Shown: positions 11,653 through 56,843 of the stretch, in pieces
How positions within the stretch are numbered: the first letter of the stretch is position 1
Layout: the number at the start of each line of letters is the position of its first letter
Source of the DNA: a virus
Taxonomy: Duplodnaviria > Caudoviricetes
Direction: 5' to 3' (one strand)
IMG/VR virus record: IMGVR_UViG_3300035182_001152
DNA length: 64,000 nucleotides
Notes under the pieces: generated by a model
Told to the model about the DNA's origin: nothing
Seen by the model: only the letters and a program-made list of their open reading frames with translations
Databases searched by the model: none
Position numbers and translations under genes: made by a program

Positions 11653-11707
11653 CGTACGGTGAGACTGCTGACATAAATAAGGTGAACACACTCTATCGAG
11701 GAACGCC

Positions 11708-13036
11708 ATGTCAGCATATCAAATCGACTTCTCAGATCCACTCAAGAATGGTTTTGCCATTTCTGATGGTAGCTTTAACGGCCCAGGTGGCTCCTCTGCA
11801 AATACATCGCTACGGTTGTATGGCCGTGGCGCACGTGAATGGGGTGAGGCAGTTGACGAGGATTTGGTCCGTCTGACTGAAAACTTCGCTGCTGCTTCAG
11901 CACCAAGCGTGCCGATTGCAGGCCAATTCTGGGTTGAATCATCTCTGTACTACCGCGACACATCGCTGGGAAGCGTTCTGCAAGGTTGGTACTTCTACGA
12001 CGTCAATTCTGTAGCAACGAACAAGTGGACACTTCTTGGAGGCACTGGCGTTGTCTCTGGTACAGCTCCTCTGTCGCCAGTTGAAGGACAGTACTACTAT
12101 GACGGTGGTGTTAACCAGCTGCAGGGCTATTTCTCACTTGGCCGCTATGAACCTCTGACATGGGTCACTCGTTCCAGCATGTCAGGTACAGGTGCTCCCG
12201 TATCGCCAGCCGTAGTCCCTCTCCAACAACTTCGTGTGTGGAACGCAGGCACAAGCGCATGGGTTTCCCCTTCTGTCACAGCTGTCACTGGTGGCACCCC
12301 ACCAGTTGGTGCTGTAGTGGGTTCGTTGTGGTTTAACACCACTACAGGTAACCTGCTTGTTTGGACGGGGGCGCAATGGCAACAACTGGTAGGTCCTGCC
12401 ATTTCTGGCGGGACATCAGCTGTCTCTGGTATTCTGAACATGAATACCTACAAGATCACCAACCTCGGCGCCCCGTCAGTTAGTACCGACGCCGCAACCA
12501 AGGGATACGTTGACAGTGTTGTTGGCGGCGTCGGTGGCTTCCTACCGCTAACAGGTGGTAGTCTGGCTGGTCCAGGCAATCTGAGTGTTGGTGGCACGTT
12601 GAACGTTGCAGGACTGGCTACTCTCGGCTCGGGCTACGTAAACTCAACGTTCTACGCTAACGTTGCTACGTTTGGTAGCACGGCAACTTTCAACTCAGGT
12701 CTGACATCTGTTGGTACAATTAACATCACCACTGGTAGCCTAAACGTCGCTGCTGGCGGCGGTAGCTTCAACGGCACGGTCAACGTGAACGGCTACAAGA
12801 TTGTCAATCTTGCAACTGGTACAAACGCCAACGACGCTGTTAACGTAGCACAAATGAATGCTGCCATTGCGGCTGGTGGTGTGGGTGCAACAACACCTGT
12901 AATCTACACCTCAGGCACTTATAAGGCTGGCGACATCTGCATTACCGGCGGTAAGATCTACATAGCAGTCGGTGGCGGTAGCGGTATCGCCCCGGGTGGT
13001 AACTGGAAACAAATCTGGCCTGCAACATACAGCTAA
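11708..13036 (+). CDS. virion structural protein (tail fibre/baseplate type)
   Basis: LYGRGAREWGEAVDEDLVRLTENFA domain, KITNL..DAATKGYVD fibre repeats, Gly/Thr-rich, CATAAATA late promoter upstream. Confidence 0.75.
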   Translation: MSAYQIDFSDPLKNGFAISDGSFNGPGGSSANTSLRLYGRGAREWGEAVDEDLVRLTENFAAASAPSVPIAGQFWVESSLYYRDTSLGSVLQGWYFYDVNSVATNKWTLLGGTGVVSGTAPLSPVEGQYYYDGGVNQLQGYFSLGRYEPLTWVTRSSMSGTGAPVSPAVVPLQQLRVWNAGTSAWVSPSVTAVTGGTPPVGAVVGSLWFNTTTGNLLVWTGAQWQQLVGPAISGGTSAVSGILNMNTYKITNLGAPSVSTDAATKGYVDSVVGGVGGFLPLTGGSLAGPGNLSVGGTLNVAGLATLGSGYVNSTFYANVATFGSTATFNSGLTSVGTINITTGSLNVAAGGGSFNGTVNVNGYKIVNLATGTNANDAVNVAQMNAAIAAGGVGATTPVIYTSGTYKAGDICITGGKIYIAVGGGSGIAPGGNWKQIWPATYS

Positions 13037-13045
13037 AGCATAAAC

Positions 13046-14455
13046 ATGCCTCAAATCTCTACAACAACATCCGTTCCATCTGGATATGTAATCAGCACGA
13101 TGCAATCAGTCATCACTGCACTGATTGCAGCAATGGCAAGCGGCCAGACGGTGTATGCGTCTGACATTCGCTCAATGAACTCGAGTGTCTATGATCTCTG
13201 GCGAACCCACGCTCACACGGTGACAGACCGCCAAGGTATCGACACTTACGGTAACTTGACCGTGTACGGTAGCGGAGGAACGTCTATCGTCAACACCGCT
13301 TCAAACCTTGCGCTTGGCGCCGTGACAACTCCCTCTGGCATCGCTGCAGATCAAGTGATTACAGCCGCAGACATCAACGTGATGATTAACATGGTCAATT
13401 CCATGCAGTCACACACCCATACGATCACTGATAGTATCGGTGCTATATACTCGTCTCCAAACATCAATTTCTATTTCAATGGTTCTCCTAATCTGATCTC
13501 GGGTACAGACAGTGATGGCACTACCGGTGGCGATTATGCGAACATAACGTTTAAGACAGACGGGACGCTATTTCCCGAGGCACGTGGCACGTATTACTAC
13601 GGTGCAGTACAAGCTAACAACTGGATGACAAACAGCCCTGTTGATGCATTAACAGCTACAGGTTACCAGATTAAGGCACACATGGTAAGCGCAGATCTGG
13701 GGTATTGTCACTGGGGTGCTGGAACGTTTGACGCATGGTTGAATCTTGGTGTTAGTAACCTTGTTTGGTCGTGGGTGCAAAACAACGCGGGCGACTACGG
13801 TCAAGCAGTTGTTCAATTCCAAATCCGCGACATTAACACGCTAACGATTCTTGTTGACACACATGTGACTTTTCAAACCGGCTTTATTGCACCACTATCA
13901 CACTGCTGCTTCCCTGCGGATTCTTTCGTCTTAATGGACGATGGTAAGTGGAAGAAGATTCAAGACGTGAAGGCGGGTGATGTTGCCATGGGTATGGGCA
14001 AGCCCGTGATGATCAACAGCGTAGAGAAGCCACGTCTAGGCGAGCGCAGGATGATGCAATTTGGCGACAAGTCGCTGGCGTGGTCAGAAGAACACGCAAT
14101 GTGGACCCGCGACAACGCAGGTTCACAGTGGTGGTGGTCTGCTAACGCTGATATGTGGCGTGCTGAAGTGAGTGTAGGCGTAATGGGCGGGTTGAAGGAC
14201 AACTCAACGATGCGCTCTGGTACCAATGTGTCTGACTGGGCTCACCTGGATGGCTGGAAGGCTAATACTGTGACTACGATCCCTGCAGACGCAACGACTC
14301 CATTGTATCTCCCACGCACGGGCGGTTCTCCTATTATCGTCAACGGCTACGTTGTTGGCGCTGGTGTTGATGAAACCGGCTTTGAGTACTCAAAGCTGGA
14401 CTGGGATGCTGTACGCGCAATGCTTCCTGTTGTTGACCCACTCCCAACAGCGTAA
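13046..14455 (+). CDS. tail-associated protein with HxH repeats and C-terminal Hint domain
   Basis: THAHTVTD and SHTHTITD motifs; CFPADSFVLMDDGKWKKIQDVKAGD..SEEH..IIVNGYVV Hint fold starting at 13907. Confidence 0.75.
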   Translation: MPQISTTTSVPSGYVISTMQSVITALIAAMASGQTVYASDIRSMNSSVYDLWRTHAHTVTDRQGIDTYGNLTVYGSGGTSIVNTASNLALGAVTTPSGIAADQVITAADINVMINMVNSMQSHTHTITDSIGAIYSSPNINFYFNGSPNLISGTDSDGTTGGDYANITFKTDGTLFPEARGTYYYGAVQANNWMTNSPVDALTATGYQIKAHMVSADLGYCHWGAGTFDAWLNLGVSNLVWSWVQNNAGDYGQAVVQFQIRDINTLTILVDTHVTFQTGFIAPLSHCCFPADSFVLMDDGKWKKIQDVKAGDVAMGMGKPVMINSVEKPRLGERRMMQFGDKSLAWSEEHAMWTRDNAGSQWWWSANADMWRAEVSVGVMGGLKDNSTMRSGTNVSDWAHLDGWKANTVTTIPADATTPLYLPRTGGSPIIVNGYVVGAGVDETGFEYSKLDWDAVRAMLPVVDPLPTA

Positions 14456-14476
14456 GGTAATAACGAGGGAACAGAT

Positions 14477-14680
14477 ATGTCAGAAAACCTAAGTACAAAA
14501 ACGACGACATCCCCTGCGGTTCCGAATGTGAACCCAGGAGACCCAATTACGTCTACCACGTTTGAAGCAATGCTGAACGTGTTGAACGAACTCGTGAACC
14601 ACACTCACATTTTCTACGACGACTACAGCACTGCGTGCAACTGTAACTGCAACTGCGCCTGTTCACGCGGCATCCTCTAA
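14477..14680 (+). CDS. Cys-rich RiPP-precursor-like peptide
   Basis: 67 aa, GAGGGA RBS, ends TACNCNCNCACSRGIL, upstream of the radical SAM genes. Confidence 0.75.
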   Translation: MSENLSTKTTTSPAVPNVNPGDPITSTTFEAMLNVLNELVNHTHIFYDDYSTACNCNCNCACSRGIL

Positions 14681-14698
14681 CAGAGGCGTTATAACCAT

Positions 14699-15595
14699 AT
14701 GAAATACATCCTTGTTCGCCAAGGAGGTAATCGTGCTTCTGCCTTCTCAGACATCGTTGAGCAGGTCAATTATCAAGACGTACCCCAGGTTGGCTTCTAC
14801 ACGCAAGTAGCACCGAGTATGCGGTTAATTCGTAACCGCACTACCGACAATCACGATTCCCCCTTTGCGATTGCCCGATTCCACGTCGACCCAGCACTGA
14901 AGGTCCAGCCTCCGTCACACTTTCGTCGAATTGACATGAGGGCTGTCGAACGGATGATGACAAACCACAAGTACGTGATATACGGTGTCGTCAATCCAAC
15001 TCACCACGTAATTGATCACACAGTCCTTGACGGTGCTGTGTACGTCGCGCGGGATGCTGACGGTAAGTTGATCAATGCCCAAACAGGAGATGTCCTTGGT
15101 GACTCCAAGGTAACGTTTATGACGGTGTTCTTTGCGTTTGTGCGCGTCAAGGGGTTGCCGATCTATCTGATGGTACTCAATCCAAATCTACTCAGTGCGA
15201 CGGATGGGTTTGATTGTTATCACGAAGAAACGGACACCAAGTGGATCATGTTGCCGGAACGTGACAACGCGCTGATCGAGCGAGTGTTTACGCCGCAAAT
15301 ATATGACGGCACGTTGATTGGTAATGTGATTGTGCGCGATGAGGGTGATGGACAGCCGATGATCCAACTGTTCAACGATCCATGCGGCATCCTGTACGAC
15401 GAAAAGCACCTTCGCTCTGATGTGTTCATTAACGGTGTCGCAACGATTGATACCAATCTAAGCGTGTTTACAATGGACGGCGCTGTCCGCATTAGCAGTC
15501 AAGGCCGTGGGTACGTTCGAATTGTATTTGACCTTGGTGACTACTTCAATCTGTCACGGACCGAACACCCTGCACTGGAGTACGTCGTACTATGA
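14699..15595 (+). CDS. hypothetical protein of the radical SAM operon
   Basis: 298 aa, ATGA-coupled to the first rSAM. Confidence 0.7.
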   Translation: MKYILVRQGGNRASAFSDIVEQVNYQDVPQVGFYTQVAPSMRLIRNRTTDNHDSPFAIARFHVDPALKVQPPSHFRRIDMRAVERMMTNHKYVIYGVVNPTHHVIDHTVLDGAVYVARDADGKLINAQTGDVLGDSKVTFMTVFFAFVRVKGLPIYLMVLNPNLLSATDGFDCYHEETDTKWIMLPERDNALIERVFTPQIYDGTLIGNVIVRDEGDGQPMIQLFNDPCGILYDEKHLRSDVFINGVATIDTNLSVFTMDGAVRISSQGRGYVRIVFDLGDYFNLSRTEHPALEYVVL

Positions 15596-17262
15596 GCACA
15601 GCTGTCATTAAGTTCTACCCAAAGCGAACACTAACGCAAGCCCAACAGCAACGGATTGTTGATCACCAACCTTCCGTGCGAATCAATGACGACGGCACAT
15701 TTGATACGTCTGTCCGCACAATCATCACCCCAAAAGGCGATGTCAAGGAGGTGTCGTATAAGACGATTCGTCCAGGTGTGCACGAGCGAATGATGAAGAC
15801 AGCTGACGTATATGACTTGTTTGAAGACCTTCAACACATGAACCTGATTGTCACAAACGCGTGTAACCTCAGTTGTTCCTACTGCTACGAGCAGCATAAC
15901 AAAGATTACGGTCGATTCACAAACGAAAGCCTAAAACAGCTATACAACTTCCTCGTCGCGTGCAACCCAAACAGCGGCAAGCTGTTTCAGTTCTTTGGTG
16001 GCGAACCCCTGATCCACAAGCAGTTGATTCTCGATTTTATCGCCAAATATCGTGACGAACTGCAGGCAAACAGTAAGACAACTGCCGTTAGCATTATCAC
16101 CAACGGTATTCTGTTAACGCCAGAATTCATCAACGAGTACTTTGCGAATGACTTCGTTTGTATGAGCGTTAGCCTCGATACGGATGATGCTGAGATTGAT
16201 CACCGTGAGATTGGCCAGGCTCGGATCGACAAAATCATCAACATGATTGGTCTAATCCCCTCGTACCACAAAGACAATCATATGGTTAGCGTCCGTTGCA
16301 CGATCGCAATGGAGAATGCTCCGCGGCTAGTTGAGTTCGCCAAACGCTTGTATGACAAGGGTCTTCGAGCAATGGTAATTCATCCGCTGACGATGAGTTC
16401 CGTTAACGGCCACATGATATGGAATACTGAAGATTGGAACAACCTCCACACTAGCGTTAGCCACATCATCAAGACGCTGCCTAACTTCGAGGTTCAATTC
16501 TCAGAGGGTGTCGGTGCCAAGGGCGGCAACAACTGCATGGTTGGTTCTGACATGATCGCTGTTGACGCGTCGGGTGATTACTCCGGTTGCCATTTCTTCA
16601 CAAACCAGAAGGAGGCGGCCGCTCATACGATCCTTGGTAACTTGCTGCTGGACCAAGTGTACGTTGACCGGTACATGAAGTTCCAAGAAACGTACGACCA
16701 GATGTTCACATCGGAGCCACAATGTCAAGCCTGCGATCTCAAGGGTTTCTGCTACCAATGCCCTGCAGGCAATTCTGATTCTGGTCGTGGCCAGCTGTTC
16801 CGGCCAGACGATATGTGCCAGAGCATTGTACGTCTGTTCCTCGAACTGCAGAATGACATCGTGCGCAAGACATTCAACGCTAAGCTACAGGAGCTGATTG
16901 GTTCTGTACAGCAGTACGGTGAACACTATGTGTTCAGTAAGGCAATTGTACACCTCCACCACTTCTACAAGAATGGTCAGCATGCCACTGACGTTCAAGT
17001 TGATCCCAACCTCCCATACGAATACCTCGCCGCCGGTTTTATGGCAACAATTACCGGTGGCGACGCTAGCGTTCCGGTTGACATCAAGAGTTTGTATGAG
17101 GCGTTGATGCGCAGTAAGGGCAAACCAGTTAACGCGAGTATGGCACAGGGTACAGCTGATGACATCAACAAGCGTATCTTCTACCTAGCCCTACTACACA
17201 TGGTTGTGCTGAACAAGAAGGGTGATGACTTGTCAAAACCGCACAAAATCATTAAGCTGTAA
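15592..17262 (+). CDS. radical SAM/SPASM enzyme 1
   Basis: CNLSCSYC, FFGGEPL, TNG; SPASM CMVG..SGCHFF..CQAC..FCYQCP..C. Confidence 0.92.
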   Translation: MSTAVIKFYPKRTLTQAQQQRIVDHQPSVRINDDGTFDTSVRTIITPKGDVKEVSYKTIRPGVHERMMKTADVYDLFEDLQHMNLIVTNACNLSCSYCYEQHNKDYGRFTNESLKQLYNFLVACNPNSGKLFQFFGGEPLIHKQLILDFIAKYRDELQANSKTTAVSIITNGILLTPEFINEYFANDFVCMSVSLDTDDAEIDHREIGQARIDKIINMIGLIPSYHKDNHMVSVRCTIAMENAPRLVEFAKRLYDKGLRAMVIHPLTMSSVNGHMIWNTEDWNNLHTSVSHIIKTLPNFEVQFSEGVGAKGGNNCMVGSDMIAVDASGDYSGCHFFTNQKEAAAHTILGNLLLDQVYVDRYMKFQETYDQMFTSEPQCQACDLKGFCYQCPAGNSDSGRGQLFRPDDMCQSIVRLFLELQNDIVRKTFNAKLQELIGSVQQYGEHYVFSKAIVHLHHFYKNGQHATDVQVDPNLPYEYLAAGFMATITGGDASVPVDIKSLYEALMRSKGKPVNASMAQGTADDINKRIFYLALLHMVVLNKKGDDLSKPHKIIKL

Positions 17263-18050
17263 TGATGAAAACAACACACATTGCATTTTACCAAGACGCT
17301 CTGTACGACTGTCCTCTTCTCCGTGGTCAGGTGCTAACCGATATCGACGACCTGCGACTGTTCATGGAATATCACGCATTCGCAGTGTGGGATTTCATGT
17401 CGCTGATCAAATCGCTCCAGAACCATATTGTACCGTCGGGCAATGTGTGGCTTCCGTCACCCGAATCGACAGCTGTTGGTCGATTGATCAACGAAATTGT
17501 CCTGTGCGAGGAAACAGACGACAACCTCGGCGGTGGTCATATTAGCCACTTCGATCTGTACATCACTGCGATGAATGAAGTTGGCGCCAACACAAAGCCG
17601 ATCCTGTCATTCATCAACAAACTGCGAACCAATCGCAAGCTCAGCTTAAACCAGTTGCTGCTAGAACTCCCTCTGCCAGCACGGAAGTTCTGTGAGAGTA
17701 CTTTTGCAGTAATTGCTACCGATCAACCCCATAAGATTGCCGGGGCGTTCGCCTTTGGTCGCGAACGGGTAATCCCGTCAATGTTCACGCAGATCCTCTC
17801 TCAGATGGAGGCCACTGGAATCCAAGCACCAAAGTTCAAGTACTACCTTGAGCGTCACATTGACGTTGACGGGAACGCACACGGCCCAGCTGCGCTTGAT
17901 ATGGTTGATTATCTGTGTGGGGATGACCCAGTCAAGCACCTGGAAGCGGAACGAGCTGCATTGGATGCAATCCACGCTCGGATCACGCTATGGAAGGACG
18001 TACAGCGAGTGATTGAAGACGTCAAGCGTGTCAAGTTTGGAGCAGCATGA
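17262..18050 (+). CDS. DUF3050 heme-oxygenase-like (HDO) diiron protein
   Basis: FMEYHAFAVWDFMSLIKSLQ, INEIVLCEETD, SHFDLY, FAFGRE, YLERHIDVD..HGP. Confidence 0.8.
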   Translation: MMKTTHIAFYQDALYDCPLLRGQVLTDIDDLRLFMEYHAFAVWDFMSLIKSLQNHIVPSGNVWLPSPESTAVGRLINEIVLCEETDDNLGGGHISHFDLYITAMNEVGANTKPILSFINKLRTNRKLSLNQLLLELPLPARKFCESTFAVIATDQPHKIAGAFAFGRERVIPSMFTQILSQMEATGIQAPKFKYYLERHIDVDGNAHGPAALDMVDYLCGDDPVKHLEAERAALDAIHARITLWKDVQRVIEDVKRVKFGAA

Positions 18051-19120
18051 CGACACCAACACTCTCCGGATGCAAGAATATCAGCATCTACCTCGGCAAT
18101 GTTTGCAACTTCAATTGCACATATTGTGACAGAGACTACATCAAGGAGTCGATCGGTGGTCAACATATGACCACCGAGGATATTCCAAAGATCGTTGAGT
18201 TCCTCCAAGCTTCTGGTATAGCTGACAACCCCCCGGAAATGTTTAGCTTCCATGGTGGTGAGCCGTTCACATACGTCAAGATCATGGACAAAATCATGGA
18301 CGCAGTAACGTCAGCTGTCCCTGGCGACTATCCGCTATACATTCAAACGAATGGTAGCCAGATGCTTCAGCATCGATGGTTCTTTGAGAAGTGGGGTAGT
18401 CGCCTTGAGATTAGCATCAGCTACGACTTCTTGTACCAAGACATTAACCGCACCCTGTTTGAGATCAACCCTACGCTGGAAATGTTGAACCAGAACGGTG
18501 TTCGTGGAATCCAGTTCCAATACGTGATGCCAATCTCTAATCCGAAGGTGTTTAGCCTATCAGCATTGAAGGCGATCACTAACTTGTGCCACAAGAACGG
18601 TGTCAAACGGGTTAACCTAATCCCACTGCGGCACATTCGGGGCAAAGACAAGTTCAAGGTGATCCTTGACGACCTTGATATTCCACAGTTCTTCGATGCG
18701 TTCATCAAGTTCATCCACATGCTGTATGTGATGAACATTGACGTTACAGTTGATGGTCACGGTGTTGGATTTGACAAGCACTATTTCTACAACCATAAGT
18801 TAATGGTGTTGTCACCAGATGGTAACATCTATCCCGAATACGACTTCCTCGAATACAAGCGCGAAGAGACGATCATCGGTCAGTGGCGAGAGCAGCAAGT
18901 TATCGAGCGTGTCCGTGATAATGAAGATGACATGCTGCAACCGAAGTGTGTTACGTGCCCATCCCGCCCACTGTGTGGGCTAAAGTACTTACATGGGATG
19001 TTTGGTACTGACCCAGCAACGGATAAGTGTGCGCAGTTCTATCAGATGCTGATGGTTACGATCCAGCACGCACAAAAACTAAAACAACAACCAAGCTTCT
19101 TGCATTGGGTCGGAATATGA
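18047..19120 (+). CDS. radical SAM/SPASM enzyme 2
   Basis: CNFNCTYC, FHGGEP, QTNG; C-terminal CVTCPSRPLCG..C. Confidence 0.9.
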   Translation: MTTPTLSGCKNISIYLGNVCNFNCTYCDRDYIKESIGGQHMTTEDIPKIVEFLQASGIADNPPEMFSFHGGEPFTYVKIMDKIMDAVTSAVPGDYPLYIQTNGSQMLQHRWFFEKWGSRLEISISYDFLYQDINRTLFEINPTLEMLNQNGVRGIQFQYVMPISNPKVFSLSALKAITNLCHKNGVKRVNLIPLRHIRGKDKFKVILDDLDIPQFFDAFIKFIHMLYVMNIDVTVDGHGVGFDKHYFYNHKLMVLSPDGNIYPEYDFLEYKREETIIGQWREQQVIERVRDNEDDMLQPKCVTCPSRPLCGLKYLHGMFGTDPATDKCAQFYQMLMVTIQHAQKLKQQPSFLHWVGI

Positions 19121-20301
19121 CAACAGAACAACGGCACTTCACACCCAGTGTACAGAACGTAACGAACTTCAAGGAATACTTCCTACAGTACGACGGGTTG
19201 AATCACGTCAGCCAAGAGCTTGGCTTTTCCCTGTTTAAGCGGTACACGTGTAAAGCAGGATGCAAGATGTGTTACTTGCAGAACGACTGGATCGCTGACG
19301 AAGACTTCGGTATCTTCATTCCAAAGGAAATTGACGATCACACTGAAGCTCGCCTTTTGTCATTCTTTGAAGCGTTTTCTGACGTCGGCACGTATGATGA
19401 TTTGGCATATTTGAAACGAGCGCACCCACACCTGTATGAGTTCTACAAGAAGCACAGCCACCGCCTCGTTAATACATCAATGTCAGACACCGCTTTCATT
19501 CAGCAGTACCCACTGCTGATGAATGAGCTCAACTTCAAGGGAATCTACGAGATTACGTTTAGTGATGTGTTCCTAAACAAAAAGAGTGGTGGCTTAGCGC
19601 ATGATATAGTCAATATGCTGAAGCCTCTCCACGCAAAGATGCCCCTGCTAAAGATCAAGGTTGTACGAATCACACAGGAAGGTGAGAAGTCTGATGCCGT
19701 CAAGAAGGTCGTCGACTATGCACACAGTATTGGCATAGCAGTTGGCCTGCAAGACGATATCGTCAAGGGCGACAACAACAAGTTGAGCCTTGATGTTGCT
19801 GACTACCAAGAGCTGAATTATTTCGCTCAAGGGTCTGAGCCGATGCAGGTCCTATCAGAGATTACCTACCTGCAATACACGTCGTCGTTTATGACCCTGA
19901 CCGACACAGTATCGCCAACAAGTGTTCCATTCTTTGATGTATTGTCAACGGACGACATCAGCGTATTCCTGTACAACTCCTTAGATGCTAAGTTAAAGAC
20001 GTACACCCGATACACCAAGGAAATGGATAACACATGCGGCAACAAGCTGTTCGACTACTTTGCGTACGTATCAACGTCGGTTGTGCTACATCCAAAGTTT
20101 AACTTCATCCCCCGGATGTCGCTGAAGCCGTGGACGGCAATGTACCATAAGCTGATAGCTCAGGGTTGGACGGAGACCAAGCTTGGTCTGTATCGACCGA
20201 ACGGTGAGCCAGTGACACCAATCTTTACGATCAGCACAAAGCCAAAGCAGAAAATCTATCACATCCCAATCAAGTGCACTCCTGTAGGAGCAACTGTATG
20301 A
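19117..20301 (+). CDS. divergent radical SAM-like protein 3
   Basis: CKAGCKMC cluster motif; no GGEP or SPASM cysteines; ATGA-coupled. Confidence 0.65.
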   Translation: MTTEQRHFTPSVQNVTNFKEYFLQYDGLNHVSQELGFSLFKRYTCKAGCKMCYLQNDWIADEDFGIFIPKEIDDHTEARLLSFFEAFSDVGTYDDLAYLKRAHPHLYEFYKKHSHRLVNTSMSDTAFIQQYPLLMNELNFKGIYEITFSDVFLNKKSGGLAHDIVNMLKPLHAKMPLLKIKVVRITQEGEKSDAVKKVVDYAHSIGIAVGLQDDIVKGDNNKLSLDVADYQELNYFAQGSEPMQVLSEITYLQYTSSFMTLTDTVSPTSVPFFDVLSTDDISVFLYNSLDAKLKTYTRYTKEMDNTCGNKLFDYFAYVSTSVVLHPKFNFIPRMSLKPWTAMYHKLIAQGWTETKLGLYRPNGEPVTPIFTISTKPKQKIYHIPIKCTPVGATV

Positions 20302-21584
20302 GTCTGACCAAATTTGAGATCGTTCGCACAGGCGAACATTTCTACTACAACAACGAGAACAACGGCTTGCTGGACGCCAACGGTAACAGCCTTAGCCGTG
20401 CTTTTGTACCCCCAGCTGATTGGAATCAGCTGGAAGACCGATTCGGTCGCACAGATGTTGTCAAGAACCCCGAAACAATCAAGATCACCCTGGGGCACGG
20501 TTGCAATTACAGTTGTGGCTACTGCATGCAAAAGGACATTGGCAATCCCGACGAGCGACCGGTCAATGGTCTAACACCAATGCTGATCAGCAAGATCCGC
20601 CGCCACCTGGATCTGTCTGAGACGACACGGATTGAACTGTGGGGCGGTGAAACGCTACTGTATTGGAAAGACATGATGCCGATCATGGAAGAATTTGATC
20701 GTGAGGGAGTTACTTGGTACATCCCAACCAATGGTACTCCCCTGATGCACAAGCACATTGACTTCTTCATGAGGTTGAAGGGCAGGGTTGCAATGGGGAT
20801 CTCTCATGATGGGCCTGCGCATGAGATTACGCGAGGCAAGGAGTTCCTGCACAAGAAGGTTGACGTGTTCAAGCGGATCGAAACGGAGTGTGGTGAGCAG
20901 GTACAGTACAGCTTCAACCCCGTTATCAGTCGTACAAATTACGATCTGTTCGAGATCAACGACTTCTTTGTTCGATTCTTTGACGAGCACAGCTTGAAGT
21001 ACAAACAGCTGAGTTTCGAACTCGGGCGCGTGTACGACGAGACGATGGCAAAGAACTCAACGCACCACGTGATCAATGGTGAGCATATCCCAGCGTATAG
21101 GGACGTTCTGACGCGATACATGGATGCTCATATTGAGCAATTCCAACGGCTTGGTGGGGTTACACAAGCTCCCCTACTGGCGAACAATCTGTTCCATACA
21201 GGCATGGGCGTTCTCCCGTATGTGCGTTCGCTGCAGGAGCAAAAGGTTCCCTTGTTGAAGACGAACTGCGGGGTGGACGACAGTCGGTTGATGAGCATGG
21301 ACACGATGGGCAACGTCCGCACCTGCCAAAACACCGACGAATCGTACAATGGCGGCAACTTGATGTACATCAAGGGCATTCGAATCCAACGTGTTGATCT
21401 CAATCGTGATGCACACTGTGGGTCATGTGAAGTCCGTCGTCTCTGCAAGAGCTCATGCCCACTTGACCTCGGATCGGCAACGTTCCAAACCAATTGTGCT
21501 GTTGAGAAGACGCACTACCGGGCGATCCAGTTGGCTGCATTCAAGTTGTTGTTTGACAGTGAGATTCGCATGATTGGCCAGTGA
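20298..21584 (+). CDS. radical SAM/SPASM enzyme 4
   Basis: CNYSCGYC, LWGGETL, PTNG; CGVDD..RTCQN..CGSCEVRRLCKSSCP..NC. Confidence 0.9.
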   Translation: MSLTKFEIVRTGEHFYYNNENNGLLDANGNSLSRAFVPPADWNQLEDRFGRTDVVKNPETIKITLGHGCNYSCGYCMQKDIGNPDERPVNGLTPMLISKIRRHLDLSETTRIELWGGETLLYWKDMMPIMEEFDREGVTWYIPTNGTPLMHKHIDFFMRLKGRVAMGISHDGPAHEITRGKEFLHKKVDVFKRIETECGEQVQYSFNPVISRTNYDLFEINDFFVRFFDEHSLKYKQLSFELGRVYDETMAKNSTHHVINGEHIPAYRDVLTRYMDAHIEQFQRLGGVTQAPLLANNLFHTGMGVLPYVRSLQEQKVPLLKTNCGVDDSRLMSMDTMGNVRTCQNTDESYNGGNLMYIKGIRIQRVDLNRDAHCGSCEVRRLCKSSCPLDLGSATFQTNCAVEKTHYRAIQLAAFKLLFDSEIRMIGQ

Positions 21585-21653
21585 TGTCTGACGGAGAGCG
21601 GATGTGCAAACCCATAAATACTCACACATCCATCTCACGGAGTTAGGCATACA

Positions 21654-23465
21654 ATGACCAATTACGTATTCAAGCACAGCGACCCTGCAGCAGGTTCGTT
21701 TCTAGTTCAAGCAGACCAGATCGACGGTACGTCGCGTCCTGGTAATGCGGCATTGTACATCAACCCCGTCTCAGGCCTCTCTGCAATCTCAGCCAATTCC
21801 TCTCTCGTCTTCGCTGGACAGGGAATTGTTGACTACGGCGAACTAGTGCAGAACAATCTGATCTACTTGATGGAGCACTTTGCCTATGCAACACGCCCTC
21901 TAAAGCCTGTACAGGGTCAGATTTGGTACAAAAACGCAGCAGGTGTAGACCCGTCCTTCCCGAGCGACCCATCTTCGGTCGGTCTTTATCTGTGGACAGG
22001 ATCACTCTGGACGCCGATCATTACTGGTGCAGGCGGCGTACTTGACATGGGCGGCGCTCGTGTAGCTAACGTTGGAGATGCAATATCCGCCGGTGACGCA
22101 GTTAGCCGTGGCTACGCAGATGCACGCTACTTGCAGCTGTCTGGCGGCACAATGACCGGTGCAGTTATGGTTGCATCAGGCAACTGGACATTTAATTCCG
22201 GCGTTTCTCTGTCAGTGACAAACGCTCCGACAACCAGTTTGCATGTTGCCAATAAGGCATACGTAGACGCTGCTTCTGCCACGTCTGCCGGCCTAGTTTC
22301 TACTGAAGCTACTACCCGCGCAGCAGCTGATAGCGCACTTTCGTCCAGCATCTCTACGATCAACTCACAACTGCCAAACTTTGTTCAAGTTACTGGCGAT
22401 ACGATGACAGGCACACTGTCGATCGACTCTGGCGGTGGTATCGTTGCCCTCAACGGTTCCGGCACTATTAGTTTTGGCTCTCGTCGCTTGCAGCTCGTCG
22501 GAGACCCTATTCTAAACACTGACGCGGCAAACCGAATCTACGTTGATACAGCGATCGCTACGGCAATTGCGGGCGTTGGCGCTGGATCTAGTGATGGTGT
22601 AGTTGTTAGTGGTGACTTGAATTCATCAACTGGCGTGTTGACTCTTCAGCGCAGCATGGGTCTCTCAGACGTGGTTGTAGTCGGCTCGTTCGCTCCATTC
22701 TCACACGCCCACCCTGCGACCGCGGTTACATACGATCTGTCGTACGTGTATCCACAAAGCTACTTGACGACGTCGGAAGTAGGTGACACAGGCTTCCCCA
22801 ATGTCCAACTGCAAGACATTATTCGCACAATTGACCAAAATTTGACGACATTGAACCGTTGCGTTGTTCGCAAATTGGCCGTCGGCGACGGCATAACTAC
22901 TACATATTCCGTAGGCGCTGTTGGTACCTACACTGTGGGAGATAATCGTCTGCAGGTGTTTGTTGATGGTGTCAAACAGTACGCTAGTGAGCACGGGATC
23001 AGCACTGTTGTATTCACAGATACGGGTATTGGATATCGATCAGTAATCCCAGGCGTCACGGGTGCGCCTCTCGTGTTCAACATCGCAGTGGACAGTGGTC
23101 CTCCAACAACTGTTTCAATTCCAACAGGGGCGGGATACACGTACTTGCAGTATTTCATTGACCTGCAGGCTGCTTTTAGTACACTGTCTATCCCTGCACA
23201 AGTTCGTGCGGACCAATTCTTTGACCGCATTGAGTTGTACTTTGTGTCCAACACTTCAGGTGCAGGATCTAGTGTATTAGTATCAAACACAGCAGGCCAA
23301 GCTTTTACTGTGATTACCACAGCGTCTGCGCCTGTTAACACGTCTGTGACAACGTCATACTCCTACAGCGAAGTCGGCAACCCTGGTGCAGATTCAACCT
23401 CCATCACATTCAACGTAGCACCTGATGCGGGTTCTGTTGTTGAATTTCTAACCTTCCCTGCTTAA
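21654..23465 (+). CDS. virion structural protein, paralogue of 11708..13036
   Basis: FAGQGIVDYGELVQNNLIYLMEHFA, repeated DA..K/RxYVD fibre motifs, CATAAATA promoter at 21613. Confidence 0.75.
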   Translation: MTNYVFKHSDPAAGSFLVQADQIDGTSRPGNAALYINPVSGLSAISANSSLVFAGQGIVDYGELVQNNLIYLMEHFAYATRPLKPVQGQIWYKNAAGVDPSFPSDPSSVGLYLWTGSLWTPIITGAGGVLDMGGARVANVGDAISAGDAVSRGYADARYLQLSGGTMTGAVMVASGNWTFNSGVSLSVTNAPTTSLHVANKAYVDAASATSAGLVSTEATTRAAADSALSSSISTINSQLPNFVQVTGDTMTGTLSIDSGGGIVALNGSGTISFGSRRLQLVGDPILNTDAANRIYVDTAIATAIAGVGAGSSDGVVVSGDLNSSTGVLTLQRSMGLSDVVVVGSFAPFSHAHPATAVTYDLSYVYPQSYLTTSEVGDTGFPNVQLQDIIRTIDQNLTTLNRCVVRKLAVGDGITTTYSVGAVGTYTVGDNRLQVFVDGVKQYASEHGISTVVFTDTGIGYRSVIPGVTGAPLVFNIAVDSGPPTTVSIPTGAGYTYLQYFIDLQAAFSTLSIPAQVRADQFFDRIELYFVSNTSGAGSSVLVSNTAGQAFTVITTASAPVNTSVTTSYSYSEVGNPGADSTSITFNVAPDAGSVVEFLTFPA

Positions 23466-43954: not shown

Positions 43955-44174
43955 GATTGAGTCCTAGTTAAAGTAACTCAATCATCCTGTTAGCAGCTTT
44001 GACCCTCAACAATTACTTCTTGCACTGCCAACCAGCGACGACCTTACCCACTTCACCAGCATGTTCTGGTGAAGTGTTGCTGATTTTGATCTTACGGTTG
44101 ATTAGGCCCGTTTCTTCGAGCTTCATACGAATATCCGGTAACGTTGGAAGCTCGACGAGAATGGGCTTGTCAAC

Positions 44175-44507
44175 TTACACTTCAACCGTCTCCGGCTTGG
44201 TGTTGTAGATTTCCTCACCAGTCTCTGTGTCCTTGGACAGCAGATCGGGAGGGATCGGCTTCAGCCACGTGTCTGGACTGTATGCCCGGGAGGTTGGACC
44301 GTACGGGGTTTCGAAGCCCCGCGGAGACGTGGCATCAATCCACCAGTAGTTATCCGTGATCATTGCCTTGCACATGATCCCGTTGACTTCAAACACGTCA
44401 CCTTCGTTCATGTAGCCAATATATTCGGCCACATCGACGATGTGGCCTACGTAGTTACCTGTGACTGTCCGCAATACGAACGCCAGGTCGCCCTTCTTAC
44501 AACGCAT
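44175..44507 (-). CDS. hypothetical protein
   Basis: MRCKKGDLAFV, GGAG RBS. Confidence 0.6.
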   Translation of the reverse strand: MRCKKGDLAFVLRTVTGNYVGHIVDVAEYIGYMNEGDVFEVNGIMCKAMITDNYWWIDATSPRGFETPYGPTSRAYSPDTWLKPIPPDLLSKDTETGEEIYNTKPETVEV

Positions 44508-44600
44508 TTTGATGTACTCCAATGATGTAGCGATAGCACAGCAGGGTGAGCATCGCGACAATGATGAACCGCACTTCAGGTGGTAGGTTGTTCCAGACTT

Positions 44601-45056
44601 TCACTCGGCGTCATCCACAGAAATGGTGCCGCAAAACCGGTTGTGTAGCGATTCGTAGGCGATTTGAGCAAAGCTTGGCTTCGATGGTGCGGTCACAGGC
44701 TGGCACGGCCGCGTTTCCTTCCATTGCTTATATCGCCGGTGAGTGTAGATCATCGCCACGATCACACTGGCGATGCCGGAGGCGATCATCGTAATCACGG
44801 AACCAGGCTCTGGATCGATCCACTGACCCAGGTGAGCCATTGCTGATACCCACGCAGCGATATCACCAATCGTCAGGCCGATCACTAGACCACCAATTGC
44901 CGTGCCGATCAGCGCGACAAACATTCCCAGCAGCACCGCACGAATATACGAACACAGATCGTAATACCCCTGCACAATGGCAAAGTGTGATGCTGGCCCG
45001 TACAGAGTTGCAAATCGGAAGTGGAGCGAGTTTGAGGATAGGTTGAACGATTTCAT
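44601..45056 (-). CDS. membrane protein
   Basis: Two hydrophobic segments. Confidence 0.6.
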   Translation of the reverse strand: MKSFNLSSNSLHFRFATLYGPASHFAIVQGYYDLCSYIRAVLLGMFVALIGTAIGGLVIGLTIGDIAAWVSAMAHLGQWIDPEPGSVITMIASGIASVIVAMIYTHRRYKQWKETRPCQPVTAPSKPSFAQIAYESLHNRFCGTISVDDAE

Positions 45057-45059
45057 GAC

Positions 45060-45197
45060 TTAGTGCTTGGTTGGGACCGGAAGGACAGGTGGGTCGAACT
45101 CGTCAGGGTCGTCGTCATCCTCGTCATCGAACGGATAGAACGGCGGCGGTGGCGGATTGCGGTGGGGCGGAGTTGGGAGTGGTTGAGGGAATGGCAT
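45060..45197 (-). CDS. Pro/Asp-rich 45-aa peptide
   Basis: MPFPQPLPTPPHRNPPPPPFYPFDDEDDDDPDEFDPPVLPVPTKH with AAGG RBS. Confidence 0.5.
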   Translation of the reverse strand: MPFPQPLPTPPHRNPPPPPFYPFDDEDDDDPDEFDPPVLPVPTKH

Positions 45198-45255
45198 AGT
45201 AGTACCTTTTCAATATGGACTACTGTACTTGCTCATCCTACCGCATTCAACAATT

Positions 45256-45534
45256 TCAGGAAGGGTCTCTGGGGAATAGTTTATACCAAACAATCACCAG
45301 CAACAACGCGAGATTGACACCGTAGTTACACTGCAGAGGTAGCATATGTCCCTTCAGCGATACGTACAGTAGCATGGTTGAACAACCAACCAGCCAGGAA
45401 AGAAGGAACGGCCATGCGAGGCCGTTACTATGCTTTTGCCTCCAGCACACCCATGCTTGAGGCAACGCTGATAGCGAAAACACCGCAGCGCCGAACCACC
45501 CAAGCGGTTCTACTAATTGTTGAATCCAGTTCAT
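45256..45534 (-). CDS. PQ-loop/SemiSWEET-like membrane protein
   Basis: LGWFGAAVFSLSALPQAW..K.S.GL, three TM helices. Confidence 0.75.
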   Translation of the reverse strand: MNWIQQLVEPLGWFGAAVFSLSALPQAWVCWRQKHSNGLAWPFLLSWLVGCSTMLLYVSLKGHMLPLQCNYGVNLALLLVIVWYKLFPRDPS

Positions 45535-45890
45535 GTATACACGATGTTGTTCGCATCGTCTAGTTTGACCCAGAAGCGTGACTTGCACTTCTTGAGGTCG
45601 GGGTGGGACCGAATGCGGAACGTCACACTGTCGTATTCGGCCATCCCGTTGCGGATAAAGATCCGATCAACAGACAGTACTGTGCCAGCAGGTAGGGTGA
45701 CGTCGTATACCTCATCGCGCGATTTCCGCCACGCTTGCCACTGTTCTTCCGTGGCAGCGGCAGAGTACGGTATTTCCAACCCAAGCAGCTGGCGGAAATC
45801 GCTGTTCCTGTGCTCAGCGTGTAGTTTGAATGTCCACGGCTGCGACAGCGTTAGTTCTGTGCGCAGGTGGGGAATCATCAGTTGTGGCAT
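45531..45890 (-). CDS. hypothetical protein
   Basis: AGGAG RBS, 119 aa. Confidence 0.6.
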   Translation of the reverse strand: MPQLMIPHLRTELTLSQPWTFKLHAEHRNSDFRQLLGLEIPYSAAATEEQWQAWRKSRDEVYDVTLPAGTVLSVDRIFIRNGMAEYDSVTFRIRSHPDLKKCKSRFWVKLDDANNIVYT

Positions 45891-46175
45891 TCGAACTCCT
45901 TGACGGGAATGATCCGGTACCACTTTTTCATCACGTACAGCCAGATGCCGCCGTGCTTGAAGAACTTCGGTGACCGCCAGACCAATTTCATCATTTCACC
46001 CGCAACACAGTGACCGCCAGGTCGGCGAAGTGGACCACATCGACAACTACGACTAGGTGGTCACGCACGCGAACCTTTTCACCGATTCGTGGCAGCACCT
46101 CGAGGTGGCGCCGCAGTCCATCAAAGGGAGTGGCGTTGGTAGATCTAACCAACGATTGGAATTCTGTCAACACGC

Positions 46176-46409
46176 TCATGCTCGCTCTCCGCTGCTGCTG
46201 GATGTGTGCCATACTGTTTGGATGCACTGCTCGCGCAACACTCGCAGCTCTTCTTCCAGCTCCTGGATTCGACGTGCTGCAGCGCGCATGTCTGCACCTG
46301 CAAGGTACACAGTACCTGACTTCTTGTCTTCATACGTCAGTAACATTGGATACATGGTCAGACGGGCAACTAGCTGCTCACTGGTCAGCGGCGGGTTGGA
46401 GCGTGCCAT
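46176..46409 (-). CDS. hypothetical protein
   Basis: 77 aa, AARRIQELEEEL coiled coil. Confidence 0.5.
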   Translation of the reverse strand: MARSNPPLTSEQLVARLTMYPMLLTYEDKKSGTVYLAGADMRAAARRIQELEEELRVLREQCIQTVWHTSSSSGERA

Positions 46410-46467
46410 TTGTGTACTTTCAGAGCTGTTAAACGATGACCGACTATAGAGGAAGGCGACTCCGTAG

Positions 46468-47001
46468 TCAATTTTGGGTCAAATCGATTGTTGGCATCGG
46501 AAAGCCGTACTTGACCATGAAGGGATCGGGTTTCATTCGATCCAAATCAGCAACTTTTTCTTCCCGGGGGGCGGGATGATTCTTGATCTGCGCGGACGAG
46601 AACAACACGCCCATTGCATCGCGCGCTGTTGCAGCACGTCGTGCCTTAAAGATTTCGTTGTATTTGCGTATCCGTTCCGGATACTTGTCGCTTGCTGCCT
46701 TATACGTATCGGGAGGCAGCGGAGATGGATCGCCAAACGAATTGGGATTTGTAGCGCGATTCTCGTCTCTGACAGTACGTGCCTCTTCCCGGGTCTCACA
46801 CTCTGCAATCTTCGTGTATTTGACGGAGGACATGTCTCCGTTATACAGAGCGCGGAACCGTACGTCAAACCGTGTCACTTCCGAGGCAGTAGTTCGAGCG
46901 CTGCTGAATTCGAGCCATTCTTTGGCCTTGTCCAGGCCACCTTCAACGTATCCAATGTAAACTGGGTCTTGCGACCCTTTCGCTGCGTATACTGTAAACA
47001 C
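46468..47001 (-). CDS. hypothetical protein, possibly degenerate GIY-YIG
   Basis: FTVYAAK..PVYIGYV N-terminus. Confidence 0.5.
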   Translation of the reverse strand: MFTVYAAKGSQDPVYIGYVEGGLDKAKEWLEFSSARTTASEVTRFDVRFRALYNGDMSSVKYTKIAECETREEARTVRDENRATNPNSFGDPSPLPPDTYKAASDKYPERIRKYNEIFKARRAATARDAMGVLFSSAQIKNHPAPREEKVADLDRMKPDPFMVKYGFPMPTIDLTQN

Positions 47002-47274
47002 ACTAGTCTCCGGAAGTTGTGATAATCAACCTTCCGAGAAATCGGTTATCCAGTAAACAACCAATAAAAGGGGAACGCCTGTGGCTCGTGGCCACAGGCG
47101 TTCCATGTTGGGGAGGTTACCTGACCTTGATCAGGCTGAAGCAGCCACCCACGCTGCCGGCGGTAGACACAAGGGCCCACGGCCAAAACGCAGACTCCGT
47201 GACGCTCCAGTCGGAGATCCAGCCGCCGAGCAGAAACACGGCAATGGAAACCAAAGTTGAGCAAATTATGAATT

Positions 47275-47697
47275 TCATGCGGACACCAGTTGCGTCAGAT
47301 TGACGCCCTCGCGATGAGCGAACGAGAGGTTCTCGTACGAAATCGTCACCAGGCCTGCGCGCCGGAGTTCTTCCAGGGGCAGGAGGATGGCGGTCAGGTA
47401 TTCCATCGCCTCGTTCACGTAGTCGTTGGTCAGATCCTCAACGTCCTCACCCTCGGCGGCGAGCAGCATCATCGTCAGGACGATCATGTCGCGGCCCGCT
47501 TGATCCTCAGCAGCAGCTTCAGTGACGTGATGTTGGACTTGCGCAGCGACCTTGTTGAGATCGTGCACATCGAACAGCGACAGGCCAGACAGCCAATCGC
47601 CGAGCGTGAGGTAGTTGCCGACGTTCTCACGCAGTCGGAGCTGCAGACGTGCGACAGCCTTGGCTGCCACGTCCGACAGATTGTTTTCTTGTTCCAT
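47275..47697 (-). CDS. hypothetical protein
   Basis: GAGGA RBS before ATG 47697. Confidence 0.6.
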   Translation of the reverse strand: MEQENNLSDVAAKAVARLQLRLRENVGNYLTLGDWLSGLSLFDVHDLNKVAAQVQHHVTEAAAEDQAGRDMIVLTMMLLAAEGEDVEDLTNDYVNEAMEYLTAILLPLEELRRAGLVTISYENLSFAHREGVNLTQLVSA

Positions 47698-47848
47698 TAC
47701 GCACGCCTTCCTCTTTGCAGTTGCTCTTATGAAAGCTGAATGTGCATCAACTCTCATATCGTACCCGTGAGGGTAAACACCCATTGCCACATCGAAAGTA
47801 GAAGCTCCGTTGGACGTTCCCCCGTCCAACGGACTCCGCGGCGATCGA

Positions 47849-48058
47849 TCAGCGCTTGCGAGTGGTAGGCGCGAACAGCGGCTTGGCGTTGTTGGTCGAC
47901 GTCGACGTCTTGGACAGGCCGGTGCCGACACCGGGGCCGTTGTCATGGACCACGACCTGCGGCTGCTGGTAGATCACCTGCGGTTGCGGTGAGGGGCCAC
48001 AGCCGATCAGGGGTATTGCCATCACGGCAACGGCGAGCATGGTAAGGCGGAATTTCAC
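47849..48058 (-). CDS. small lipoprotein
   Basis: Signal peptide with lipobox LIGC. Confidence 0.55.
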   Translation of the reverse strand: MKFRLTMLAVAVMAIPLIGCGPSPQPQVIYQQPQVVVHDNGPGVGTGLSKTSTSTNNAKPLFAPTTRKR

Positions 48059-48172
48059 AAGCGATCTCCTCTTGGATATGTGACAGAAGCGAGTCTACCG
48101 ATTCCCACGCTTAGTAGCAAATCGGTAGATTTAGGGTAAACCCAGCGGCCTCGCTATTAGGTGTTGGGAGTA

Positions 48173-50036: not shown

Positions 50037-50192
50037 CCCAGGGCTACAGCGGCGAGCACGGATACAGCAATTACACTAAGAACGATCCACATTCCGGTGT
50101 TGCTTTCCGCGGCGGTGCCGCTATCATATTCAATCATCACAGGCTCCCTCGTTCGTTAGATGAGTCTACTGTACCGAAACCCAAAAATAGAT

Positions 50193-52586: not shown

Positions 52587-52649
52587 GGCCTTTGCTCCAC
52601 GCTGTTGATGAAAATTGTTCGGACATTGCCCATTAGGCAATCTGCGAAC

Positions 52650-56840: not shown

Positions 56841-56843
56841 CGA

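Follow-up and report, generated by a model that had tools for sequence, protein, structure and literature searches.

Why should a bacteriophage carry, between two of its tail-fibre genes, a run of eight genes of which four code for radical S-adenosylmethionine (rSAM) enzymes? The question is raised by a stretch of 64,000 nucleotides from a virus of the class Caudoviricetes (IMG/VR record IMGVR_UViG_3300035182_001152; the whole stretch is referred to as the window), where the + strand from 11708 to 23465 holds a single unbroken gene run. Eight genes lie in it between the fibre genes fibA and fibB, among them one for a 67-amino-acid (aa) protein with a ladder of cysteines near its C-terminus, the presumed substrate of the enzymes. 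As set out below, this cassette probably serves the enzymatic maturation of a fibre-associated structural protein, and not the production of a free antibiotic-like peptide. A first-pass annotation of the window had proposed that the phage modifies parts of its own virion, and comparative genomics supports that proposal at the sequence level. Thioether formation, the specific chemistry suggested, is put forward more tentatively, at a little under an even chance.

The presumed substrate (14477–14680, + strand; GAGG Shine-Dalgarno sequence 8 nt upstream) consists of a polar N-terminus followed by an amphipathic helix, the residues HTH, IFYDDY and STA, the cysteine ladder CNCNCNCAC and a closing SRGIL. 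The peptide had been described as ending in CNCNCNCAC; this is corrected by the five further residues, which form a conserved tail (xRGx[LIV]) seen in most of the 100 ladder-bearing members of the family. A profile search of 1.84 billion protein representatives returned 89 family clusters, and residues M32, H42, H44, D48, C54, C56, C58, R64 and G65 are invariant in 38 distinct peptide sequences. In the 100 ladder-bearing members the cysteines number 3–6 and are spaced i, i+2, and in 96 of them the first Cys follows the second His of the HxH motif at a distance of exactly 10 residues. The first inter-Cys position is occupied by Asn, Gln, Glu or Asp in 99 members and the second in 97. The ladder codons of the window are a mixture of TGC and TGT, and only chance matches were obtained with the peptide profile against PDB sequences.

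A peptide homologue adjoins rSAM1, the first of the enzyme genes, in 46 of 48 related viral contigs (retrieved with rSAM1), and the arrangement of peptide and enzymes is not due to chance, because the peptide stands beside the enzymes in these loci. The gene-neighbourhood check proposed with the first-pass annotation thus bore it out, revealing around both genes a core that is constant in the 48 loci: a Cys-less HxH protein, a protein of ~300–340 aa, the peptide, rSAM1, rSAM2, a bare-core rSAM and rSAM3. Among cultured phages, RP12 and RP31, two Ralstonia jumbo phages related to phiKZ, stand closest (~43–49% amino-acid identity); megablast against 50,697 phage records gave no match for the region, the relatives being detected at the protein level only. 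The RP12 peptide homologue, an unannotated open reading frame (ORF) of 65 aa (NC_041911.1 82,888–83,085, + strand; L001:6889-7086), sits between ORF074 and ORF075 and ends in CNCNCNCAC-TRGSL, and its RP31 counterpart, from 79,633 onward, is also unannotated. Four cassettes were found in 185,579 species genomes, three of them in contigs of metagenome-assembled genomes. The fourth, a full cassette in Ewingella americana E4 (NZ_RCZD01000008.1; L051), lies on a 253-kb scaffold and codes for a ladder protein of ~120 aa ending in CNCNCNCNCNC-TRGII. As its length is that of a jumbo phage genome, this scaffold could stem from a co-assembled phage or from a pseudolysogen, and a culturable host would then be indicated. 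Absence of the peptide from homologous loci had been named in advance as a reason to give up the proposal; the peptide is present in the 46 viral contigs, in RP12 and RP31 and in 4/4 species-genome cassettes.

This constancy also bears on a quite different explanation, in which the rSAM enzymes would act on a non-protein substrate (a DNA base, nucleotide, lipid or sugar) and the Cys peptide would be an unrelated structural or regulatory operon-mate. Phage rSAM enzymes are used in DNA hypermodification (PMC8989533), and ketosynthase and desaturase genes occur in some of the loci. However, peptide and enzymes stay together in 46/48 loci and in every species-genome cassette, and an enzyme of the rSAM3 type tracks the ladder across phages of unrelated types (the siphovirus JWF, the Ackermannviridae phage RSP15 and the jumbo phages), so that this explanation appears very improbable. 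A correlation of ladder length with the number of enzymes was also considered and rejected, since loci with 3–6 Cys all keep the full set.

A closer link between ladder and tail fibres is provided by simpler phage systems in which a single rSAM is found. A tblastn search with rSAM3 also matched the single rSAMs of the Achromobacter siphophages JWF and 2-1 and of the Ralstonia phage RSP15 (Ackermannviridae). The hidden Markov model (HMM) of the rSAM3 family aligns over the full length with JWF gp030 (E 8e-55) and RSP15 ORF045 (1e-51), and the rSAM1 and rSAM2 HMMs match these enzymes far worse. A maximum-likelihood tree built from 79 sequences groups rSAM3 with the JWF type in a single clade (support 100/96), from which rSAM1 and rSAM2 are separate. 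An alignment-based scan located the JWF-type rSAM in at least 542 viral contigs. The upstream protein was inspected at the 69 JWF-type loci kept for having at least 2 kb upstream, and a Cys ladder was seen in it at 62, lying 0–6 residues from the stop in 52 and fused to a Hint domain in 10. Nine out of ten representative ladder proteins match tail-fibre PHROGs (E down to 1e-104), and the ladder is here the C-terminus of tail-fibre proteins of 200–690 aa.

In JWF the genes follow the order central tail fibre J, gp027, gp028, gp029 and the rSAM gp030. The 483-aa fibre protein gp028 (L066:2658-4109) carries the ladder CNCDCNCNCSC directly before FPAGTMV; therefore, the last Cys of the ladder is at the same time Cys1 of the Hint domain, which passes its Pfam threshold (47.5 vs 32.1). 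If this Hint domain cleaved itself off, the ladder would remain as the C-terminal end or in the form of a thioester. In RSP15 the 'side tail fiber' ORF048 ends in NCQCGN. The usual order of the JWF-type module is the ladder fibre, an unknown protein of ~285 aa, a ~205-aa protein resembling 2-oxoglutarate (2OG)-Fe(II) oxygenases, and the rSAM. When three representatives of the ~205-aa protein were compared with PF13759, one scored above the threshold, one just below and one gave no match. The genes for these proteins (L070:4309-4944, L087:4315-4998 and 51 similar ones) are placed just before that of the rSAM. The ~205-aa protein may act as an O2-dependent partner, in the way suggested below for the DUF3050 protein of the window. 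The accessory proteins of the simple module (the oxygenase m0, m1 and m2) showed no relation by hhalign to the 298-aa, bare-core rSAM or DUF3050 families of the window, and the window-family HMMs missed JWF gp029 and RSP15 ORF046/047. The rSAM clusters (cupin, 2OG oxygenases) of the jumbo phages RSL2, RSF1, FLC6 and S13 were considered as possible further cases of the system, but tblastn with rSAM1 and with rSAM3 gave no match in them.

Since the JWF-type loci carry the ladder on fibres, ladder plus rSAM3-type enzyme is a widespread tail-fibre feature, again in the company of an O2-dependent iron enzyme. What the window has is a more complex form of it from a jumbo phage, with the ladder on a separate small protein that is predicted to form trimers. 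The earlier idea of a modified virion part gains support from this relationship, as the sister rSAM, present in at least 542 phage contigs, goes along with the same Cys ladder at the C-terminal end of tail-fibre proteins or directly in front of a Hint domain.

The region preceding the ladder in the 67-aa protein resembles the leader of a biosynthetic precursor, and its nature could be assessed from its relatives. The protein encoded just upstream (13046–14455, + strand, 469 aa) begins with two helix-HxHxΦxD modules, continues with a middle domain and ends in a Hint-like autoprocessing domain from Cys288 on. Residues 5–129 match phrog_31780, and an hhalign match to the peptide profile (81%, E 1.2e-5) covers residues 94–131. 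Cys-less proteins of ~128 aa with two HxH modules are encoded in 40 of the 48 related loci (RP12 ORF074 is an example), and family members of 100–390 aa have 2–3 modules or Gly-rich or Pro-rich fibre-like parts. The long members of the ladder family include P0043 (256 aa), P0076 (390 aa) and P0029 (230 aa). In one long member the ladder precedes a Pro-rich linker and a domain of 190 aa, in a second a Gly-rich fibre-like region lies between HxH modules, and in a third the ladder comes after three modules. These proteins show that module and ladder serve as parts of larger fibre-like proteins. The "leader" of the peptide is a structural module, one that Cys-less paralogues and longer fibre-like proteins have as well.

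The Hint-like domain of the 469-aa protein scores below the Pfam thresholds (17.9 and 17.0 bits against PF01079 and PF05203, with thresholds of 29.7 and 32.1), but its 171-aa alignment with the JWF gp028 Hint domain shows 42% identity (E 8e-38). It shows the block CFPAD at Cys288, where the junction carries only 'HCC' and no ladder.

These relationships are central to deciding whether the product is a ribosomally synthesised and post-translationally modified peptide (RiPP) that leaves the particle. Such a free RiPP would lose its leader and be released as a Cys-rich core at lysis, acting as an antimicrobial, as a signal or in host manipulation, and its association with fibre genes would be purely positional. 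The leader–core layout, the adjacent SPASM-type rSAMs and the variable tailoring genes do look like those of biosynthetic clusters. However, no leader protease or exporter was seen among the annotated conserved neighbour families of the 48 loci, the "leader" module is common to Cys-less paralogues and multi-module fibre-like proteins, the ladder forms the C-terminus of tail-fibre proteins in the sister systems, and a trimer is predicted for the peptide itself. A free RiPP is thus considered quite unlikely, and the maturation of a fibre-associated structural protein is retained as the preferred interpretation.

The trimer prediction comes from modelling of three copies of the 67-aa protein, which reached a score of 0.64, the best control remaining at 0.00, and passed its controls. 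The mark was reached by 20/30 proteins solved as one-chain pairs and by 1/23 solved as single chains, counts that are only rough because our own alignment was used, Fe included. Between runs the contacts agreed to at least 83%, and the pLDDT (predicted local distance difference test) of the partner was at least 68. The modelled interface is built from like-with-like contacts between residues 32-32, 36-36, 39-39 and 44-44 and also involves Cys54, Cys56 and Cys58, so that the invariant residues are those modelled on or near the three-fold axis. Metal sites on such an axis are known from trimeric phage fibres, where HxH motifs at the tip of T4 gp37 and in the fibres of R-type pyocins bring six His together on the three-fold axis to bind metal. 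The invariant HxH of the window would occupy a comparable place on the predicted axis of a fibre-like trimer. It differs in following a short coiled coil and preceding a Cys ladder, and the likeness noted here is one of motif.

A trimer of this kind could also be read as a metal or Fe-S needle, in which HxH and ladder would bind a column of metal or Fe-S and the rSAMs would build or insert the cofactor (in the manner of NifB or HydG) or carry Fe-S; no thioethers would be formed, and the product would still be a virion part. H42, H44 and the three Cys are invariant and placed at the interface or axis of the trimer model, the i, i+2 spacing puts all thiols on one face of the strand, Ala is tolerated between the later rungs, and iron sites of the HxH kind are well established for trimeric fibres. 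However, plain metal binding needs no dedicated enzymes, yet 1–5 rSAMs always accompany the ladder, and the first two inter-Cys positions are nearly always Asn, Gln, Glu or Asp, all known as thioether acceptors. Oxidases dependent on O2 (DUF3050 in the window, a 2OG oxygenase in the simple systems) also suit covalent tailoring better. The enzymes themselves add one point on each side: NifB is found among the weaker structural matches of rSAM1, and the closest enzymes by sequence and structure are SPASM enzymes that cross-link peptides or oxidise Cys. With all of this considered, a needle that only binds metal is judged unlikely, and covalent maturation of the fibre-associated protein is preferred.

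Inspection of the enzymes, for which conserved Cys were counted in 30–40 homologues per rSAM family, showed several differences among them. In rSAM1 (15592–17262, + strand; recognised by Pfam and NCBIfam) the cluster-binding C91, C95 and C98 (CX3CX2C) and 7 SPASM Cys are conserved, and the core is extended by ~80 N-terminal residues and by a helical C-terminal part. In rSAM3 (20298–21584, + strand; likely start ATG 20298) the same holds for C77, C81 and C84 and 7 further Cys including CX2CX5CX3C. Both have the Cys set that is general for SPASM maturases. The paralogue of rSAM3, rSAM2 (18047–19120, + strand; hhalign probability 99.1% between the two), has no N-terminal extension and conserves, besides CX3CX2C, only 4 auxiliary Cys, corresponding to one auxiliary-cluster set (CX2CX5C...C). 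The description of three rSAM/SPASM proteins therefore stands for rSAM1 and rSAM3, with their full 7-Cys sets, and has to be reduced for rSAM2. The fourth enzyme (19117–20301, + strand; 394 aa from the likely start ATG 19117; phrog_36229) is a bare-core rSAM in which the three Cys of CX3CX2C (motif CKAGCKMC) are the only ones conserved in 36 homologues, with no auxiliary Cys. It had been taken for a divergent rSAM, and rightly so, as an hhalign comparison of its profile with the rSAM1 core (83%, E 9e-6) brings the motifs of the two into register.

The best NCBIfam match of rSAM1 is PapB (NF047865, 126.7 bits, E 1.2e-36; curated cut-off 340, missed), a model with which rSAM2 and rSAM3 score 33.8 and 33.5. 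It is followed by QhpD (TIGR03906, 82.4 bits, short of the cut-off of 453), and no dehydrogenase genes, the partners expected for QhpD, were present in the neighbourhood. The CXXX-repeat maturase TIGR04115 is also missed (65.6 bits vs 350), and the ladder has Cys at every second and not at every fourth residue; further matches are the nif11 and SCIFF maturases. The AlphaFold model of rSAM1 (pLDDT 77), in which residues 1–80 fold, at low confidence, as two helices with a hairpin between them, is closest to CteB (5why, E 5e-12), SkfB, ChlB, anSMEcpe, TigE and SuiB, with Viperin and NifB as weaker, lower-ranked matches. Viperin and MoaA models weakly match all three rSAMs, as an enzyme acting on a non-protein substrate might; against this, the best matches in sequence and structure are peptide-modifying enzymes. 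The first-pass annotation had stated that grouping with nucleotide- or DNA-modifying families would speak against it. The rSAMs do not group in this way, PapB being the top NCBIfam match and the nearest structures belonging to SPASM enzymes that modify peptides or proteins.

Between rSAM1 and rSAM2 is placed the gene of a DUF3050 protein (17262–18050, + strand), a putative diiron oxidase with a heme-oxygenase-like fold of the HamA-MgoB type. It matches PF11251 with 273.5 bits (E 2e-81; threshold 22.2), and H38, H96, H157, H199 and H207 are invariant in 24 homologues. A published model of the heme-oxygenase-like HamA/MgoB family treats it as a diiron oxidase and a relative of CADD (PMC4520260). 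DUF3050 genes are found in 29 of the 48 related loci, at varying positions.

From the gene content and its conservation, the homology of the modules, the class of the enzymes and the link between ladder, rSAM3-type enzyme and fibre, all of which are observed, we infer a modification of the 67-aa protein, roles for the single enzymes, thioether chemistry and incorporation into the virion, along the following path. The 67-aa product would trimerise through its coiled-coil/HxH module, and trimerisation would line up the three C-terminal Cys ladders round the three-fold axis. The aligned ladders would then be acted on by rSAM3, the likeliest ladder enzyme because it is the one that ordinary phages with a simple, one-rSAM system also possess. 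It may join the Cys sulfur to carbons of the interleaved Asn, Gln, Glu or Asp in thioethers of the ranthionine or sactionine type, within or between chains. Further radical modifications could be contributed by rSAM1 (PapB/CteB-like), rSAM2 and the bare-core rSAM, and an O2-dependent oxidation by DUF3050, with the 298-aa Ig-like protein described below as a non-enzymatic scaffold, chaperone or attachment site. The matured trimer would finally join the tail-fibre apparatus encoded on both sides of the cassette, where it would form a tip or joint held by covalent staples and perhaps bearing metal.

A more far-reaching version can be formulated, which we regard as possible and no stronger than that. 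In this version a multi-enzyme radical pathway (as many as five rSAMs together with iron oxygenases, joined in some lineages by B12-dependent methylation, transamination or acylation) would turn trimeric (Cys-Asn/Gln)n tails into an inter-chain-stapled, possibly metal-loaded needle. This would amount to a new class of virion modification with a new cross-link chemistry. It would determine how well the host-recognition tip withstands mechanical or chemical attack or which receptor it recognises, and Hint would expose the end of the ladder or activate it as a thioester.

Several observations weigh against maturation of a fibre-associated protein. The later inter-Cys positions are frequently Ala in the 100 members, so an acceptor side chain is not required at each rung. 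In the window the ladder is carried by a separate 67-aa protein, 5 residues before the stop, and not by a tail fibre. Gel-band mass spectrometry of RP31 virions listed 32 proteins and none from ORF68–76, in an analysis that was shallow and to which the peptide, its ORF being unannotated, was undetectable. Every rSAM HMM score is far under the curated family cut-offs. A RiPP recognition element (RRE), which the first-pass annotation had suggested looking for in the rSAM N-termini and the 14699 protein, was recognised in neither: at E up to 10, Pfam gave no PqqD/RRE match for the 298-aa protein, its N-terminal half included, for the N-terminus of rSAM1 or of rSAM3, or for the C-terminal extension of rSAM1. 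The O2-sensitive rSAMs and the O2-requiring DUF3050 would have to work in one and the same infected cell. Finally, the homotrimer is a prediction of modest confidence.

The 298-aa protein (14699–15595, + strand), an unknown member of the core, has positional counterparts of ~300–340 aa in the related loci that are all homologous to it (phmmer 1e-8 to 1e-22) and always adjoin the peptide gene. Its AlphaFold2 model (pLDDT 85) ends in a C-terminal third folded as a generic Ig-like sandwich. The only structural relative is RP12 ORF075 (TM 0.76), and a search for homologous proteins with the 298-aa sequence returned itself only. Fold searches with the model (PDB Foldseek, VIA wide, AFDB clusters, atlas, BFVD) revealed no enzyme or RRE fold, and the model has no winged helix. 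The protein thus looks structural and not enzymatic, and is probably a structural partner or chaperone.

Besides the constant core, an LtfC-like protein of the fibre-assembly type is encoded in 17 of the 48 loci, and variable genes of the tailoring type are placed within the cassette. A B12-binding rSAM like KedN5 and RiPP C-methyltransferases is encoded in 12 loci (L028:6137-8188) and a rubrerythrin-like diiron protein in 5 (L007:8054-8842). Ten loci have a class-III aminotransferase (L006:7569-8843, minus strand), which reaches 128.7 bits with the daptide RiPP aminotransferase model, under the cut-off of 450, and scores higher with BioA-type transaminases. A FabF-like beta-ketoacyl synthase together with a fatty-acid desaturase is seen in 4–5 loci (L012:5215-7237; L019, L024, L047), accompanied by small unknown ORFs; the whole group immediately precedes the genes of the 298-aa homologue and the peptide, and it hints at acylation of the product. 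The flanks of the related loci hold a tail-fibre gene (phrog_19602), a virion-structural gene (phrog_473) and the gene of a large phrog_358 protein, and the loci also carry fibre genes with a Peptidase_S74 chaperone.

How far the cassette departs from known systems can be seen by comparison with those in which a SPASM rSAM acts on a Cys-rich substrate. PapB and QhpD join Cys to Asp or Glu, and NxxcB joins Cys to Asn. The ranthipeptide and sactipeptide systems (PapB/freyrasin, CteB/SCIFF, NxxcB, SkfB) are alike in having a SPASM rSAM beside a Cys-rich substrate and Asp, Glu or Asn of the acceptor type near the Cys. They differ from the cassette in several respects: its scores are far under the cut-offs of these families, no RRE, leader protease or exporter was seen in it, their one enzyme is replaced by four rSAM-type proteins plus a heme-oxygenase-like oxidase, the Cys are spaced i, i+2, the "leader" is a trimerising structural module, and host and context are a phage and its tail fibres. 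QhpD, acting on QhpC, is similar as a SPASM rSAM that forms Cys-to-Asp/Glu thioethers in a small subunit retained in a protein complex, whereas the cassette is without the dehydrogenase partner and the Trp-quinone logic of that system. CrpC of Methanococcus voltae puts ranthionine links on the whole Cys-rich protein CrpA (PMC13692751). There, too, a SPASM rSAM works on a protein and not on a short secreted peptide, with a substrate recognised by gene adjacency; CrpA differs as an archaeal cellular protein of unknown role and without fibre context, and its likeness to the cassette noted here is one of description.

A further comparable arrangement is the simple phage module itself (JWF gp028–gp030, RSP15 ORF045–048), which has the (N)-C-x-C ladder, an rSAM orthologous to rSAM3, a Hint domain related to the Hint-like one of the window and an iron oxygenase partner. 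Its ladder is the fibre's own C-terminus and it has one rSAM, whereas the window has the ladder on a 67-aa HxH protein with an xRGxL tail, adds three rSAM-type proteins and contains DUF3050 in place of the 2OG oxygenase. Full-text literature searches returned only 'radical SAM' gene annotations in RP12/RP31 and other phages, and found no description of a Cys-ladder peptide, of rSAM-modified fibres or of the JWF-type simple module. What is new with respect to the known rSAM/SPASM maturation of Cys-rich substrates is the trimeric virion fibre module as substrate, the multi-enzyme make-up and the biological setting. Covalent modifications installed on virus particles by enzymes are rare, and to our knowledge none is made by radical SAM enzymes.

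If this interpretation is correct, RiPP-type chemistry would be part of the building of host-touching fibres in many phages, from 80-kb siphoviruses to jumbo phages, and many so far unexploited rSAM enzymes and their substrates would become accessible, with at least 590 loci seen. The DUF3050/HamA proteins and the bare-core rSAM family would also gain a concrete candidate substrate, and there would be consequences for fibre stability, for host-range engineering and for how far phage assembly needs anaerobic or microaerobic conditions. The hypothesis is open to direct test in the culturable phages RP12/RP31, JWF and RSP15.

With regard to the flanks, fibA (11708–13036, + strand) codes for a tail-fibre-like protein of 442 aa that matches phrog_2710 (tail fiber, E 1e-12) and, weakly, YadA_stalk, and fibB (21654–23465, + strand) for a fibre-like virion protein of 603 aa matching phrog_14394 (virion structural) and phrog_2647. 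Their paralogy, claimed in the first-pass annotation, is confirmed over the first ~95 residues (32% identity, E 3e-11) and is mainly limited to that part. All the genes it had listed between them are present on the + strand as a tightly coupled run. The ATGA overlaps it had described exist at 15592, 18047, 19117 and 20298, the overlap at 17262 being TAATG.

Late promoters had been assigned to both fibre genes in the first-pass annotation; what can be seen in front of them is a candidate motif. This motif, CATAAATA, is found 6 times in the window (0.68 expected), at 5485, 11672 and 21613 on the + strand and at 27134, 30718 and 41321 on the - strand, mostly a short distance upstream of gene starts. 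The copy at 11672–11679 (+ strand) lies 29 nt before fibA and is a candidate phage promoter for the entire run, and that at 21613–21620 (+ strand) lies 34 nt upstream of fibB, where the presumed transcription unit would end. No copy is present between 11672 and 21613, a spacing that fits one transcription unit from fibA to rSAM3. As a candidate phage promoter core, CATAAATA resembles the T4 late sequence TATAAATA. A scan of the window for sigma-70 promoters showed no enrichment (12 observed vs 16 expected).

The source genome is phage-like, with clamp loader, helicase and baseplate-wedge-like genes in the window, and the sequence of the window occurs in microbial mat and sediment metagenomes. 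A tyrosyl-tRNA synthetase-like gene (phrog_9270, E 9e-85) is located at 50689–52050 on the - strand. Over the last 20 kb (44000–64000) the G+C content climbs from ~0.49 to ~0.60 and the AT skew turns negative.

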